DNA of 64,000 nt from Dehalococcoidia bacterium (lineage in GTDB: Bacteria; Chloroflexota; Dehalococcoidia; Lucifugimonadales; UBA3495), in assembly GCA_965197565.1 (NCBI GenBank), contig CBDANK010000002.1, positions 655,095 to 719,094 of the forward strand. Reading direction: 5' to 3'. A program made the translations under genes and the position numbers. The notes under the pieces were generated by a model that was not told where the DNA came from, ran no database searches, and was given only the letters and a program-made list of their open reading frames with translations. Of this stretch, positions 21,275 to 26,143 are shown piece by piece (the first letter of the stretch is position 1; each line of letters starts with the position of its first letter).

Positions 21275-21658
21275 TCAGCGGCCCGGCGCAAGAAGAGCCT
21301 GCCCCGTTACCCGGCGGACGAACTCGGCCACTATGGCGCGGTCCTGAGCAATGGTGAATTCCTCCATAAAGTTGTGATAGAAGTTGGCATGAAACTTCTC
21401 GGCCACGGAAAACCCCGCCGCCAAGGATGGGTCGGAGCTTTCGTCGGCCAAAGCAGCGACGGCTCTACCCAAGGCGTAGTGTTGGCCGAACTCCCAGCCC
21501 CGCTCTTTGGCTGCGGCCATGACGGCATGAGATGCGGCCCCCCATAACTTTTCCGAGGCTTGCAGGACACCCCCGGCATCGAATTCCCGGCCAGATTCCT
21601 CCAGGAACTCCAAAGCGGTCCGGACATGTTCCTCGACAGACATCTCTCGCGTAGTCAT
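21275..21658 (-). CDS. PaREP1-like / HEPN-like helical protein
   Basis: 127 aa from ATG 21658; ALEFLEESGREFDAGGVLQASEKLWGAASHAVMAAAKERGW resembles the PaREP1 family. The 237-aa version has an Arg/Gly-rich N-terminus and is rejected. Confidence 0.45.
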   Translation of the reverse strand: MTTREMSVEEHVRTALEFLEESGREFDAGGVLQASEKLWGAASHAVMAAAKERGWEFGQHYALGRAVAALADESSDPSLAAGFSVAEKFHANFYHNFMEEFTIAQDRAIVAEFVRRVTGQALLAPGR

Positions 21659-21687: not shown

Positions 21688-22623
21688 CTAGGTCCTGACC
21701 AGGTTGCCGTAGATACGCAGCCCGCCGGACTCGGGGATCATTCCCGAAAACAGCCCCGGATGGATCATCTCCGCCAATATCTCCAGGCCAACCACCAACC
21801 TGGGGCCGGCCCGGCTGGTGTAGGAACTGGCGTCGATTACGTACACTCGTTCGTTGCGGACCGCCGGCAGGTCGGCCCATTCCTCTCTTTCGGCCAACAG
21901 AGGAACGTCTTGAAGCCCTCTCTTTACGCCGTATCCGCAGGGCATGAAGATGATAACCTCGGGCTGGCTCTCCACGATTTTGTCCCACTCCAGTGGGAAG
22001 GAGCCCGTCTCCTTATCTCCAAAGCAGTTGGCCCCTCCGGCCATCTCCACCATTTCCGGGACCCAATGGCCGCTGCACATCAGAGGCTCCACCCACTCCA
22101 AGGTCAGCACCCTGGGCCGGTCCGCCGCCAGGGAGGCCCGCTCCGCCACTGCGTCGATTCGGGCCTGCATCCGCGATACCACAGACTCAGCCTTCTTTTC
22201 TGCGCCCGTCACTTGCCCCACCCTACGGATGTCCTCCAGCACATCTCCAACATACTGGGGGTCCAAGGACAATACCTCCGGTTGTTTGGGTAGTCCGACG
22301 CTGGCCTCGGCTACCTGCCGAGTGGAGATGGCTCAAACCTCGCAGATCGCTTGAGTCAGCAGCAGGTCGGGTTCAGCCGCCTCGAGGACGTCTTGGTCGA
22401 TCTCGTAAATGCCCAGCCCTTGCTGAAGCCTTTCCGAAATGATCCGGTTGACCTCGGCGCTGCTGGGCTGCTCCCCCTCTTTGAAGACGCTGCGCACCAC
22501 GTGGGAACGGTTGCGAGCTGCGGGAGGGTAATCGCATTCGTGGGTCACTCCGAACAGATTATCATCCAAGCCCAGAGTATATACGATTTCGGTTGCGCTG
22601 GGAAGGAAGGAACAGATTCTCAT
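21688..22623 (-). CDS. BtuF/TroA-like (class III periplasmic-binding-protein fold, no signal peptide) protein; candidate selenoprotein with in-frame TGA at 22333..22335
   Basis: Two same-frame ORFs are joined by one TGA plus 20 sense codons. The full-length family match exists only when read through. C-E-V-[TGA] gives CxxU, and a hairpin CUCGGC-AGGUA-GCCGAG starts 11 nt downstream. Confidence 0.6.
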
Positions 22624-22680
22624 AGACCCTCCGCAAGTATGGCTGTATCAAAGCAATTGAGGAAATGAACGCCGCCTACC

Positions 22681-22783
22681 GTAACCCTTCAGATTTGATG
22701 GGAGTCGGTCCTTCGACTCCGCTGCGCTGCGCTCAGGATGAGCGGTTTCTTGTGAGTGCGCTCGCCAACTCTGAACAGTTACC
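22681..22783. repeat. intergenic repeat family F, copy 1
   Basis: Related to the reverse complement of 39175..39300 (cgtaac..ttcagattt...tccttcgactccgctgcgctcaggatgagcgg...ctctgaacagttac). Confidence 0.5.
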
Positions 22784-22863
22784 TCCTACCGCCTCTTTTC
22801 AGCATGGGCCACCAGCTCCACAGTGGTGTCCGCGGTCGCCACGGCGACCGAACCGTACAATGG

Positions 22864-23223
22864 TCAACGCCGCTTCCAGGTTTCCACCAACTGGTGGGCC
22901 TGATCGTCGTCCACTCCCCACATCTCGAAGTTGACTCGTATGGCTTCGTAAACGGTGCGTTCTCCCAGGGCTTTGTCCGGGTCCCGCCATGCTTCGGCGC
23001 CAACGTCCATCCAGTCCAGATCAATCTGGCCCTCGTTGGCTAAACGCTCCACCATGTTGACGGCGCAAGCCGTGATTCCGGATAGGAAAAGTTCACCCGC
23101 GCCCACTTCCTCTCCGCCGGCGTCATCGGCCACGAAGTGGTGAGTCCTTGCGTTGCAGATGGCGCGGCCTAAAGTCCCGGTGCTGTAGCTTCGTACTTTG
23201 TAGGCCAAGGTAAGTTCGTTCAT
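22864..23223 (-). CDS. OsmC-family protein
   Basis: 119 aa; Cys-containing segments GRAICNAR and GITACAVNMV in OsmC/Ohr-like spacing. Confidence 0.7.
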   Translation of the reverse strand: MNELTLAYKVRSYSTGTLGRAICNARTHHFVADDAGGEEVGAGELFLSGITACAVNMVERLANEGQIDLDWMDVGAEAWRDPDKALGERTVYEAIRVNFEMWGVDDDQAHQLVETWKRR

Positions 23224-23834: not shown

Positions 23835-24284
23835 ATGGCTACTATACCAGAACTAAAAGAGCAGTACGAAGACCTTGACCTTAGGCTGACCCTCAAGGAT
23901 GAGTCGGCCATAGACACCCGGTGCTTGCTCACTTTCCCATACGATTACCCTGAGCAAGAGTCGCAAATCGACATGGACACCGACGAATTTACCGCCCTCT
24001 GCCCTTGGACCGGGTTGCCGGACTATGGGACCCTGAAAATCTCCTACGCGCCGGGGGGAAGCTGTATTGAGCTGAAATCGCTGAAATACTACCTTCTGTC
24101 CTTCCGTGACGTGGGAATCGTCCAAGAACATGCTGTCAATCGAATTCTCAAGGACTTGGTGGAGGTATGTCTTCCCAGGCACATGACCGTGACCTTGGAT
24201 TACAAAGTGCGGGGCGGCATCCATACATCCGTTTCGGTGCAATACCCGAATGGCGGCGCAAGACATGCATCTGATAAGAATTGA
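23835..24284 (+). CDS. queF: NADPH-dependent 7-cyano-7-deazaguanine reductase
   Basis: TALCPWTGLPDYGTLKISY and IELKSLKYYLLSFR are QueF signature segments. Confidence 0.85.
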   Translation: MATIPELKEQYEDLDLRLTLKDESAIDTRCLLTFPYDYPEQESQIDMDTDEFTALCPWTGLPDYGTLKISYAPGGSCIELKSLKYYLLSFRDVGIVQEHAVNRILKDLVEVCLPRHMTVTLDYKVRGGIHTSVSVQYPNGGARHASDKN

Positions 24285-24684
24285 GATTAGCTTCGACAGC
24301 GGCCATCGCTTGCTGGACTACCAGGGTAAGTGCGCTTTTCCTCACGGCCACACTTATCGCGCCGAGGTCTTCCTCGAAGCTTCCTCTTTGGACTCTTTGG
24401 GACTGGTGTTCGACTTCACCGAGCTTAGAGGCCGCGTCAAGTCTTGGATCGACGCTAACTGGGACCATGCGTTTCTGGTCAATGCCAGGGACACCGAGTT
24501 GATCGCGGGCCTGGAACCGGTGGCCCAAGGCAAGCTATACCGGTTCGACGGTGACAATCCTACGGCCGAAGTGATGAGCAGAGAGCTTTACAAGACGGTA
24601 AGGGACCTTTGCGGGGTGAAGCCGGCCAAAGTGAGACTCTGGGAATCGGACAACCAATACGCCGAGTTCCACGAGGGAGAGTGA
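24265..24684 (+). CDS. queD: 6-carboxy-5,6,7,8-tetrahydropterin synthase
   Basis: FDSGHRLLDYQGKCAFPHGHTY is the PTPS/QueD zinc-ligand motif. Overlaps the end of queF. Confidence 0.85.
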   Translation: MHLIRIEISFDSGHRLLDYQGKCAFPHGHTYRAEVFLEASSLDSLGLVFDFTELRGRVKSWIDANWDHAFLVNARDTELIAGLEPVAQGKLYRFDGDNPTAEVMSRELYKTVRDLCGVKPAKVRLWESDNQYAEFHEGE

Positions 24685-24685
24685 T

Positions 24686-25435
24686 ATGCCCACCCGTTAC
24701 GGCGTGAGCCTACTCTCCGGAGGGTTGGACTCCACCACCGTCACCGCATACGCCCTCAGAGTGACCGACGACCTGACTGCTGTCACTTTCCAATACGGCC
24801 AAAGCCATAGCAAGGAAGTGGACTGCGCCATAGAGGTAGCCGATGCCCTGGGCATCCGGTGTCATCTTTTGGACATCTCCTTTTTTCGTCAAGTGGCCTG
24901 GTACTCGGCTCTTACCAATCCGGACCGTTTCCCCATTCCACAAGACCGGGCCGCCGCGGAAATGGGCGCCAGCATCCCCATTACCTATGTCCCGCTGCGG
25001 AACACCTTTTTCCTGGCCTTGGCCGCCGCTTTCTTGGAAAGCAATATTCTTCACGCCATTGAGGTAGAGGGGGCCGACCCTGGCTCGGTTGAAGCGTACC
25101 TTTTCATGGCGCCCAACGCCATAGACTACAGCGGCTACCCGGACTGCCGCCCGGAGTATTTCCACCGGATGTCGCAAGCCCTTGGCTACGGCAGTAAGGT
25201 CTGGACGGAATACAACATCCCATTACGGGTGGAAACACCCATAATTGACAAGTCCAAGGCCGACATCGTGAGGATGGGTGTCGAGTTGAAGGCTCCTCTG
25301 GAACTTACTTGGAGCTGCTACCAGGGAGGCCAAACCCCGTGCCGCTCCTGCGATAGCTGCATCCTGCGGGCCAAGGGATTTCAGGAAGCGGGGGCGCCGG
25401 ACCCTCTGCTGCAACGGTTGGGAGTGATTCCTTAA
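24686..25435 (+). CDS. queC: 7-cyano-7-deazaguanine synthase
   Basis: SLLSGGLDSTTV PP-loop and C-terminal WSCY...C..C.SC zinc cluster. Confidence 0.9.
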   Translation: MPTRYGVSLLSGGLDSTTVTAYALRVTDDLTAVTFQYGQSHSKEVDCAIEVADALGIRCHLLDISFFRQVAWYSALTNPDRFPIPQDRAAAEMGASIPITYVPLRNTFFLALAAAFLESNILHAIEVEGADPGSVEAYLFMAPNAIDYSGYPDCRPEYFHRMSQALGYGSKVWTEYNIPLRVETPIIDKSKADIVRMGVELKAPLELTWSCYQGGQTPCRSCDSCILRAKGFQEAGAPDPLLQRLGVIP

Positions 25436-26143
25436 ATGCTGCGAGTAAGCAAGCAGCCCAACGGGCAGCCGGAAATCTTTTACTCCCTCCAGGGTGAAGG
25501 GGCCAACACGGGCGCCGCCTCGGTCTTCCTCCGGCTGTCTACTTGCAACCTGGCCTGCAGTTGGTGTGACACCAAGTACACCTGGGACTGGGAGCATTAC
25601 GACTACGGCTTGGAAGTGGCGTCCTTGGAGCCCAGCCAAGTCGAAGCCCGCGTCCTGAGCTTTGGGTGCCGCCGGTTGATCATCACCGGCGGCGAGCCGT
25701 TGCTGCAACAACGACAACTGGCGCCCCTGGTAGCCTCCCTCAAGGACCAAGACTTCCAGTTCGAGGTGGAGACCAACGGCACCATTGTTCCCCAGCCTGA
25801 GTTGGTGCGGGACATAGACCAGTGGAATGTATCGCCCAAGTTAGCCACCTCGGGCAACACCGGGGAACGGCGGGACCAGAGGCGGGCAATGTATGCTTTC
25901 TGCCGGTTGCCCAACGCCTACTTCAAATTCGTAGTGACTGAACCCAGTGACGTTGACGAGGTCTGCCGCCTCCGCGACAAGTATGGCTTGGTCAATCAAC
26001 GAATTATCCTGATGCCCGAGGGCACCACGGTTCAGAATATCCAGCGGCGAAGCCCGTGGGTCTCCGAAGCCTGCGTCAAAGAGGGCTTCCGTTTCTCCAC
26101 CAGGCTGCATATCCTGCTCTGGGGCGACAAGCGGGGCCAGTGA
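25436..26143 (+). CDS. queE: 7-carboxy-7-deazaguanine synthase (radical SAM)
   Basis: FYSLQGEG...FLRLSTCNLACSWCDTKYTW is the QueE CX14CX2C-type cluster region. Confidence 0.85.
   Translation: MLRVSKQPNGQPEIFYSLQGEGANTGAASVFLRLSTCNLACSWCDTKYTWDWEHYDYGLEVASLEPSQVEARVLSFGCRRLIITGGEPLLQQRQLAPLVASLKDQDFQFEVETNGTIVPQPELVRDIDQWNVSPKLATSGNTGERRDQRRAMYAFCRLPNAYFKFVVTEPSDVDEVCRLRDKYGLVNQRIILMPEGTTVQNIQRRSPWVSEACVKEGFRFSTRLHILLWGDKRGQ

Follow-up and report, generated by a model that had tools for sequence, protein, structure and literature searches.

Does the in-frame TGA codon in a 64,000-nucleotide stretch of Dehalococcoidia DNA (contig CBDANK010000002.1 of assembly GCA_965197565.1, positions 655,095 to 719,094; the whole stretch is hereafter called the window) separate two genes, or does it encode selenocysteine (Sec) within a single gene, and what could the product of such a gene do? 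On the minus strand, two listed open reading frames (ORFs), 22333..22623 (96 aa) and 21688..22272 (194 aa), share one frame with 20 sense codons between them. Read from the ATG at 22623-22621 to the TAG at 21690-21688, this frame comprises 311 sense codons followed by the stop, and the TGA at 22335-22333 (codon 97) is its sole internal stop, which bears out the arrangement described in the original prediction, a note made from the letters of the window. The comparative evidence presented below also supports the central proposal of that note, namely that the locus is a genuine selenoprotein gene whose product combines a BtuF/TroA-type fold with Cys-x-x-Sec. Taken as a whole, the explanation we favor, i.e. 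a single Sec-recoded gene with a selenocysteine insertion sequence (SECIS), encoding a cytoplasmic BtuF-like protein for which we propose a role in corrinoid handling, has by our estimate a probability of about 0.8; the proposed role, taken on its own, is less likely than not.

Conservation of the TGA codon and of the downstream hairpin

The genome orthologue set (one genome per species) comprises 80 loci (L001-L080), all from metagenome-assembled genomes (MAGs) of Dehalococcoidia/Chloroflexota; many of these genomes are complete chromosomes (2.7-5.1 Mb) assembled from long reads, and several come from sponges or bear the label SAR202. Codon 97 is TGA in 80/80 of these species-level orthologues, with the frames otherwise undisrupted, as well as in four further metagenome loci (L100, L101, L104 and L117), which brings the total to 84 orthologous loci. 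Such conservation is far beyond chance. A search of 5.8 billion proteins revealed full-length homologues of ~313 aa at 50-67% identity, in which the motif around the TGA column reads Q-x-x-C-x-V-C-A, and the column itself is occupied by Cys in 16/16, 42/42 and 150/150 members of three sets of Cys-type homologues. The C-x-V-C-A motif that the original prediction had given for Cys-type proteins was thus recovered, and two of the checks it had named came out in its favor: the homologues run across the junction between the ORFs with Cys opposite the TGA, and the orthologues retain TGA at this codon.

The nucleotide consensus 3' of the TGA, GCn nTn TCn (A/T)CT CGG CAG GTn GCC GAG, is folded by RNAalifold into a single consensus hairpin, CUCGGC-AGGUN-GCCGAG, the stem of which begins at the 11th nucleotide past the UGA and the loop at the 17th. 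The mean synonymous entropy over 182 conserved degenerate codons of the gene is 1.17 bits, and among these it drops to zero only at V96 (GTT), R102 (always CGG, of six Arg codons) and Q103 (CAG); it is near zero at S101, A105 and E106, while the loop codon V104 varies freely (1.69 bits). In L058 and L078 a G-C pair is replaced by A-U through a compensatory change, which combines an Arg-to-Gln substitution in one arm with a synonymous GCC-to-GCT change in the other. The window (folding energy -9.4 kcal/mol) and the 80 genome orthologues keep the hairpin, one pair at most being disrupted, and the four metagenome TGA forms retain 5-6 of the 6 pairs (-8 to -11 kcal/mol). In contrast, it is absent from 82 homologues with TGC or TGT at the same column, which form 0-4 of the 6 pairs (mostly 0-2; mean -3.6 kcal/mol). 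We consider this comparison of TGA forms with Cys-codon forms decisive for the assignment of the hairpin as a putative SECIS element. The first of the two folds put forward in the original prediction is therefore upheld by the frozen synonymous sites, the compensatory change and the Cys-form control. When the window sequence is folded by itself, the alternative, GGUAGCCGA...UCGGACUACC, has the lowest free energy, but it is specific to the window, as its downstream arm is not conserved among orthologues. The invariance of V96, which lies outside the hairpin, has a different pattern: GTT precedes the predicted Sec codon in all 80 genome orthologues, the window, L100 and L101, and GTG does so in L104 and L117. 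This may reflect an effect of codon context on recoding.

The window hairpin has the small apical loop containing G that is expected of bacterial SECIS elements (PMC1088965). It resembles the element of E. coli fdhF in that both are 17-nt apical hairpins located 10-11 nt after the UGA, and both present GCAGGU at the apex of stem and loop, with the spacing offset by one nucleotide. However, the window hairpin possesses a perfect 6-bp stem and a 5-nt loop and lacks the bulged U found in fdhF, and the hairpin family to which it belongs exhibits no conserved extended lower stem. By analogy with the near-identical apical element of fdhF, we propose that the hairpin would act in the mRNA as a bacterial SECIS that recruits SelB with Sec-tRNA(Sec), and that codon 97 would thereby be read as Sec in translation.

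If translation instead ended at the UGA, two products would be expected, an N-terminal one of 96 residues and another of ~192-194 residues initiated at an internal TTG; or else the locus would represent a pseudogene or an assembly error. This could be argued from the GGAGG located 5' of the TTG and from the public gene calls, since the nearest database entries (72-97% identity; same search of 5.8 billion proteins) are almost all annotated as C-terminal fragments of 192-215 aa; such fragments are, however, what one would expect if gene callers stop at a conserved TGA. Against it, 84 independent assemblies, long-read chromosomes among them, agree in frame, TGA and hairpin; the 20-codon stretch that separates the TGA from the TTG shows conservation of its protein sequence and, in part, of its synonymous sites; the Cys-type homologues are continuous; and neither half is a complete domain, as the original prediction had noticed and as both the Pfam match and the structural model (see below) confirm. 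Comparison with the window sequence yielded a ratio of nonsynonymous to synonymous divergence (pN/pS) of 0.23 upstream of the TGA (96 codons) and 0.28 downstream of it (214 codons), at a pS of ~0.67, i.e. with synonymous sites near saturation; therefore both halves are translated and under purifying selection as protein. We regard a true stop, a pseudogene or an error as extremely improbable. A reassigned genetic code is ruled out, as TGA is the ordinary and commonest stop of the long ORFs in the window (16/38, including those of QueF and QueE); therefore the standard code is in use and the recoding is local to this site. The prediction that codon 97 is a Sec codon, neither an error nor a mark of a pseudogene, is strongly supported by this comparative evidence.

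The additional TGA forms shed some light on the history of the Sec state. L100 and L101 belong to the marine SAR202 type, and L104 (Sec codon 2658) and L117 (Sec codon 599) originate from non-marine metagenomes; L117, with which this comparison was made, is equally distant from the SAR202 Sec forms and the nearest Cys forms (63-66% identity). In L104 and L117 the common hairpin lacks one pair (GCCGAA). The nearest Cys clade retains the sequence ...CAVSSRQVAE... The SECIS element common to these two loci and to the SAR202 forms suggests a single origin of the Sec state, probably followed by Sec-to-Cys replacement in the nearest Cys clade.

Relationship to catalogued selenoproteins

The proposal of a candidate new selenoprotein family did not survive a search of the literature. 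A 'BtuF, cd01144, CxxU' family with a single Sec, represented by the MAG-derived sequences RUA21600.1 and MDE0719563.1, appears in the tables of two reviews (PMC9312934 and PMC13188914), each of which devotes to it one table line and no analysis. The window protein shares with it the BtuF-type domain, the CxxU motif and the single Sec and, by this description rather than by alignment to the representatives, very probably is a member. In our data the Sec forms are confined to one cluster at 50% identity (P0076), and a second candidate clade was not seen in the searches made. Both reviews credit Peng et al. 2016 for the family, but neither the text nor Supplementary Table S3 of that article mentions it, therefore the primary description is uncertain. 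The GOS 2008 paper, the deep-Sep paper and the main text of the BSepDB paper contain no mention of the family either, and no functional analysis of it was found in the literature searched. Likewise, no dedicated NCBIfam model for a BtuF-like CxxU family was found, and a Cys form of the family is named 'cobalamin-binding protein' by PGAP. Two other binding-protein-type families with predicted Sec, SaoB and SaoX (Haft & Gwadz 2023, listed in PMC13188914), differ, as far as a comparison of descriptions goes, in their family models (NF040727 and NF040735), in their motifs (CUxxT and UxP) and in being listed as transporter subunits.

As a selenoprotein, the gene thus adds nothing new to the catalogue, and its interest lies in its function. 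It also illustrates a practical problem, as standard gene callers and public protein databases split this gene into fragments in dozens of complete genomes.

Selenocysteine decoding in the lineage

Indirect support for Sec decoding in this lineage comes from three sources. First, the original prediction noted an 'OsmC-like thiol protein' on the same strand; the neighbor indeed exists (PF02566 in ORF 22864..23223), 162 nt upstream of the BtuF-like gene, but it appears to be itself a selenoprotein gene rather than one for a simple thiol protein. The PF02566 profile is cut at position 83 of 100 by a TGA (...ETWKRR-U-PLYGSV...), after which the frame continues (PLYGSVAVAT...) to a TAG, and a hairpin, GGUCGC-CGUG-GCGACC, is located at 22849-22834 (-9.1 kcal/mol). 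The TGA, the in-frame extension and the invariant hairpin are present in the window and in all 10 loci that carry this gene. OsmC-like proteins are a catalogued selenoprotein family with the listed motif UxxT, in place of which the window gene exhibits U-P-L-Y. Second, we searched the window and all flanks for selA, selB and selD with E. coli proteins as queries, and for tRNA-Sec with ARAGORN. A SelD gene was identified in L066 (634-1638, plus strand), ~9 kb upstream of the BtuF-like gene on a 2.75-Mb Dehalococcoidia chromosome; its product is 46% identical to E. coli SelD and, to judge from the TGA at the position of Cys17 (SHCAG*AAKIS), is the classical Sec form of this protein. Third, the genome that contains L032, 'Dehalococcoidia bacterium 10f4566d-...', figures in BSepDB (PMC13326102) among the bacteria richest in selenoproteins, with 46 of them listed. 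The remaining candidates from this search were rejected: weak 'SelD-like' matches in ~10 loci are ThiL-type AIRS proteins, and a 90-nt 'tRNA-???' in L069 falls within a coding region and is spurious.

Fold and predicted ligand cavity

Pfam searches assigned residues 8-265 of the 311-residue product to PF01497 (Peripla_BP_2) with an E-value of 3e-27, in a match that spans the TGA codon, while the scores with NCBIfam transporter models, including that of BtuF, remained far under the cutoffs. The ATG at 22623 is the earliest start codon downstream of the preceding stop, therefore a signal peptide is impossible. Both results agree with the signal-peptide-less binding-protein-fold product anticipated by the original prediction.

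In order to characterize the family, we searched 1.84 billion representatives with a Cys form, P0001, as the query and found 1,058 clusters at E < 1e-30 (i.e. ~1,000 clusters at 50% identity). Residue statistics were calculated for the best 150 of these 1,058 clusters (33-49% identity) in P0001 numbering, which is one higher than the window numbering past residue ~69. Almost all of the 150 are 300-320 aa long, and 128 have no N-terminal extension. Three cysteines never vary, namely C95, C98 (the Sec column) and C230, and a fourth, C30, is present in 144/150; they correspond to C94, U97, C229 and C30 of the window protein. Other conserved residues include Q92 (150), W188 (150), W178 (149), H28 (129) and H187 (115), and the complete family signature reads H-E-C-D-[YF]-P, Q-x-x-C-x-V-C/U-A, E-W, G-H-W-x-P-E, P-C-G, [SN]-R-x-G-P-R.

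The AlphaFold2 model was calculated for P0001, which forms the first row of our alignment A3, with high confidence (pLDDT: 91.8, pTM: 0.91). Its best matches in the PDB are ShuT, PhuT, RhuT, BhuT, HutB and BtuF (TM-scores relative to the target: 0.81-0.86), all of which are class-III binding proteins; a thioredoxin fold is not present. By sequence, the solved relatives are distant and devoid of the CxxC motif. HHalign comparison with E. coli BtuF (96% probability) confirmed the class-III two-lobe fold with the backbone helix and indicated that the family N-terminus corresponds to that of mature BtuF, with residue 3 aligned with residue 24 of the BtuF precursor. The product is thus predicted to be cytoplasmic and to possess the two-lobe fold of the small tetrapyrrole-binding proteins such as BtuF, ShuT and PhuT.

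The substrate cavity of BtuF is lined by Y50, W66, W85, F162, F168 and W196 (PMC5269720). According to the HHalign alignment, C30 is located beside Y50, and the C-x-V-C/U loop corresponds to the BtuF loop directly after W85, from which it differs by an insertion of four residues. Further pairs are E177/F162, position 183 (M/F)/F168, S209/W196 and R272/R246, and W66 has no counterpart. The aromatic residues of the B12 cavity are hence not conserved (aligned positions: E29/C30, T/Q, E177, M/F183 and S209), and since signature residues of the family occupy cavity positions of BtuF, the Cys/Sec signature would re-line the ligand cavity. The four invariant cysteines, one of which is replaced by Sec here, are predicted to be located on loops lining the cleft. 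The window protein and E. coli BtuF, the periplasmic B12 binder of the BtuCD-F system, therefore share the class-III fold and the P-S/A-x-T-E, D-Y-P and R-x-x-P-R motifs, but the window protein lacks the signal peptide, the BtuCD partner genes and the cavity aromatics and carries instead the CxxC/U insertion and the four invariant cysteines. ShuT, PhuT, HutB, RhuT and BhuT (Foldseek E-values of 1e-14 to 1e-17) constitute the small (~255 residues) tetrapyrrole-binding subgroup; they differ from the window protein in being secreted parts of ABC importers that ligate haem via Tyr, show 17-23% identity and lack the Cys signature.

Could the site of three cysteines and one Sec bind a metal ion or a Fe-S cluster bridging the lobes, with no corrinoid involved? 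The protein would then be a cytoplasmic chaperone or sensor for a metal or metallocluster (e.g. Fe-S, Zn, Ni/Co, Mo/W), comparable to the TroA-type proteins with their His/Asp sites. Sec is a metal ligand in hydrogenases and formate dehydrogenases, and the near-universal presence of C30, C95, C98 and C230 (144-150 of the 150 representatives) on three cleft loops from both lobes would fit such a role, as would the metal and molybdate binders of the same class among the PDB matches and the presence of a CDF cation-efflux gene (7 loci), XdhC or a ModE/ModA/ModB-like set in the neighborhood. Yet the nearest folds are those of tetrapyrrole binders and not of the TroA/ZnuA metal-ion group, the metal-related neighbors are heterogeneous, each being found in a few loci, and the linkage of one clade to a riboswitch and to CobQ (see below) is specific for cobalamin. 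Altogether, we find a metal site of this kind unlikely, although it is a serious competitor of the corrinoid assignment.

Genomic neighborhoods and riboswitches

Despite the fold, genes for FecCD-type permeases or ATPases were found adjacent in none of the 81 Sec-form and 86 Cys/Sec-form loci (~170 in total). This bears on another functional assignment, that of a conventional periplasmic binding protein serving an ABC importer for B12 or iron complexes, as implied by the membership in PF01497, the BtuF-like fold and the source names 'iron complex transport system substrate-binding protein' and 'cobalamin-binding protein'. Taken together with the mature-like start, the lack of a signal peptide or a lipobox, the loss of the BtuF cavity residues and the NCBIfam transporter scores far below the cutoffs, it leaves hardly any room for such an assignment.

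The Sec-clade neighbors provide no functional clue. In 68/81 Sec-form loci a Na+/H+ exchanger gene precedes the BtuF-like gene directly, on the same strand and at ~60 nt (e.g. L024:7971-9944); it encodes a 657-aa membrane protein of the Na+/H+-exchanger family that is considerably extended at its C-terminus. The window lacks this gene and has the OsmC-like gene in the corresponding position. A convergent gene for a Lon N-domain protein and, further off, IspD/IspF, CysS, PriA and ThiL complete the picture. In the window, a PaREP1-family gene (21275-21658, minus strand) lies directly downstream of the selenoprotein gene, and a queuosine-precursor operon (23835-26143, plus strand), encoding QueF, a PTPS/QueD-like protein, QueC and a QueE-like radical SAM protein, is divergent from the OsmC-like gene.

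The contexts of Cys forms are mixed, but one of them is informative. In the P0114 clade, the members of which are 53-55% identical to the window protein and share its signature, translational coupling links the gene to the CobQ-type amidase gene that follows it; also beside it are genes for a TonB-dependent receptor, a second PF01497 protein (of periplasmic-type length) and a CobB-type amidase. A metagenome scan with the family profile added 80 more loci. TonB receptors were counted in 12 loci and CobB/CobQ in 7, and in 8 the gene directly preceding encodes a PF01902 ATP-pyrophosphatase-like protein. Rfam searches identified cobalamin riboswitches (67-96 bits) immediately 5' to the family gene in L086, L094/L095 and L096, and a survey with nhmmer confirmed them and added L087 (Table 1); a riboswitch upstream combined with CobQ downstream is thus found in L086/L093, L087, L094/L095 and L096. 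In L119, L150, L128 and L172 cobalamin riboswitches head neighboring operons, which in the latter three encode TonB receptors. No description of a class of four-Cys PF01497 genes regulated by a cobalamin riboswitch was found in the literature searched.

Table 1. Positions of the predicted features in the window or, where a locus is named, in that locus
Feature	Position	Strand	Remarks
Complete predicted selenoprotein gene	21688..22623	minus	311 codons + TAG; putative cytoplasmic protein of the BtuF/haem-binder fold (PF01497), motif C94-E-V-U97
Predicted Sec codon UGA (codon 97)	22333..22335	minus	opposite the second, invariant Cys of C-x-V-C-A in the Cys-type proteins
Codon GTT (Val96)	22336..22338	minus	directly 5' of the UGA, outside the hairpin; entropy 0 at a four-fold degenerate codon
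Putative SECIS element, CUCGGC-AGGUA-GCCGAG	22306..22322	minus	17 nt, 6-bp stem, 5-nt loop AGGUN; begins 10 nt after the UGA
Shine-Dalgarno-like GGAGGG	22627..22632	minus	3 nt 5' of the ATG; read from the sequence
OsmC-like gene, itself a predicted selenoprotein gene	22786..23223	minus	ATG 23223, Sec-TGA 22866-22864, TAG 22788-22786
Cobalamin riboswitches	L086:5665-5918, L094:5562-5866, L096:3119-3476, L087:41-118		directly upstream of four-Cys PF01497 genes that precede CobQ

A possible role in corrinoid handling

The riboswitch and the CobQ linkage in the Cys-form clade suggest that the family handles corrinoids by thiol or selenol chemistry. We propose that the protein would hold a corrinoid or a related metallo-cofactor in the cleft and act on it via a thiolate or selenolate, which could serve as an axial cobalt ligand, reduce the cofactor or strip off its upper ligand; the protein would thus be a B12-handling chaperone or enzyme of the cytoplasm and not a component of a transporter. 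With Sec at this position, the reactive residue would gain in strength both as a nucleophile and as a ligand. Cys is known as a cobalt ligand of B12 in BtuM (PMC6072759), MMADHC (PMC12501144) and HgcA (PMC7305189), which offer a precedent for a protein thiolate as an axial ligand of, or a reactant on, the bound corrinoid. However, their folds are unrelated, we claim no homology to them, and none of them is a selenoprotein at the ligand position. As a functional assignment, a cytoplasmic corrinoid-handling protein that uses thiolate or selenolate chemistry in its cleft is tentative, and we would place it somewhat short of an even chance.

Or perhaps the protein could be a thiol/selenol-disulfide oxidoreductase that acts on a low-molecular-weight thiol or a CoA-related compound through dithiol-(seleno)disulfide cycling of its CxxC/CxxU motif? 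Redox selenoproteins typically contain such motifs (PMC13188914), the neighbor of the gene in the window encodes an OsmC-like, peroxidase-type selenoprotein, and pantothenate kinase and CoaBC genes adjoin the Cys forms of Chloroflexota. In addition, three of the 150 representatives (P0231, P0126 and P0169) are fusion proteins, the partners being a DCC1-like thiol-disulfide oxidoreductase, a gamma-glutamyl cyclotransferase (GGACT) and a dephospho-CoA kinase (CoaE). Nonetheless, three fusions among 150 are few, the CoA-related neighbors are divergently oriented and may reflect plain synteny within one phylum, and the control by a cobalamin riboswitch in another clade would be left unexplained. 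Redox chemistry could, moreover, be carried out on a corrinoid, so that an oxidoreductase overlaps with the explanation we prefer; indeed, the corrinoid, metal-site and thiol-oxidoreductase assignments are partly overlapping. We judge an oxidoreductase of this kind unlikely, slightly more so than the metal site, but it too is a serious competitor of the corrinoid assignment.

Several observations weigh against the explanation based on a Sec-recoded corrinoid-handling protein. The Sec-form genes themselves, in the window and in the other Sec-form loci, have no B12 genes nearby, and nhmmer found no cobalamin riboswitch at the gene in the window or in the 80 Sec-form loci; the corrinoid link comes from a clade at a sequence identity of only 53-55%. 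Other pointers lead elsewhere, namely the DCC1-like, GGACT and CoaE fusions and the PanK/CoaBC, XdhC and molybdate-type transporter neighbors. The clustering of the four cysteines in space is deduced from the topology and the alignment. With respect to recoding, selA, selB and tRNA-Sec are absent from the 64-kb window and from the ~20-kb flanks, which is uninformative because only ~0.5% of each genome is visible there. Finally, Rfam yielded no SECIS match, either in the window at the gathering threshold or in 22200-22900 at E-values up to 10 (a snoRNA match in the latter search is due to chance), which is unsurprising because the element is only 17 nt long.

Implications

A large family that universally carries the label of a periplasmic part of iron/B12 transporters comprises instead predicted cytoplasmic proteins with an invariant four-cysteine cavity, which in one clade are under the control of cobalamin riboswitches and encoded next to corrin amidases. 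The corrinoid assignment provides a testable hypothesis for an uncharacterized step of B12 handling, and it offers a possible reason for the upgrade from Cys to Sec in the marine and sponge-associated Dehalococcoidia, which rely on many selenoproteins. In its boldest form, which we consider quite improbable, this assignment posits that the BtuF scaffold has given rise to an unrecognized cytoplasmic chaperone or enzyme for corrinoid processing, in which Sec would directly ligate or reduce cobalt in the forms from SAR202 and sponge symbionts. If true, this would be the first biological Co-Se chemistry and would add a new step to bacterial B12 salvage, e.g. the removal of the upper ligand or a reduction that precedes adenosylation or amidation.

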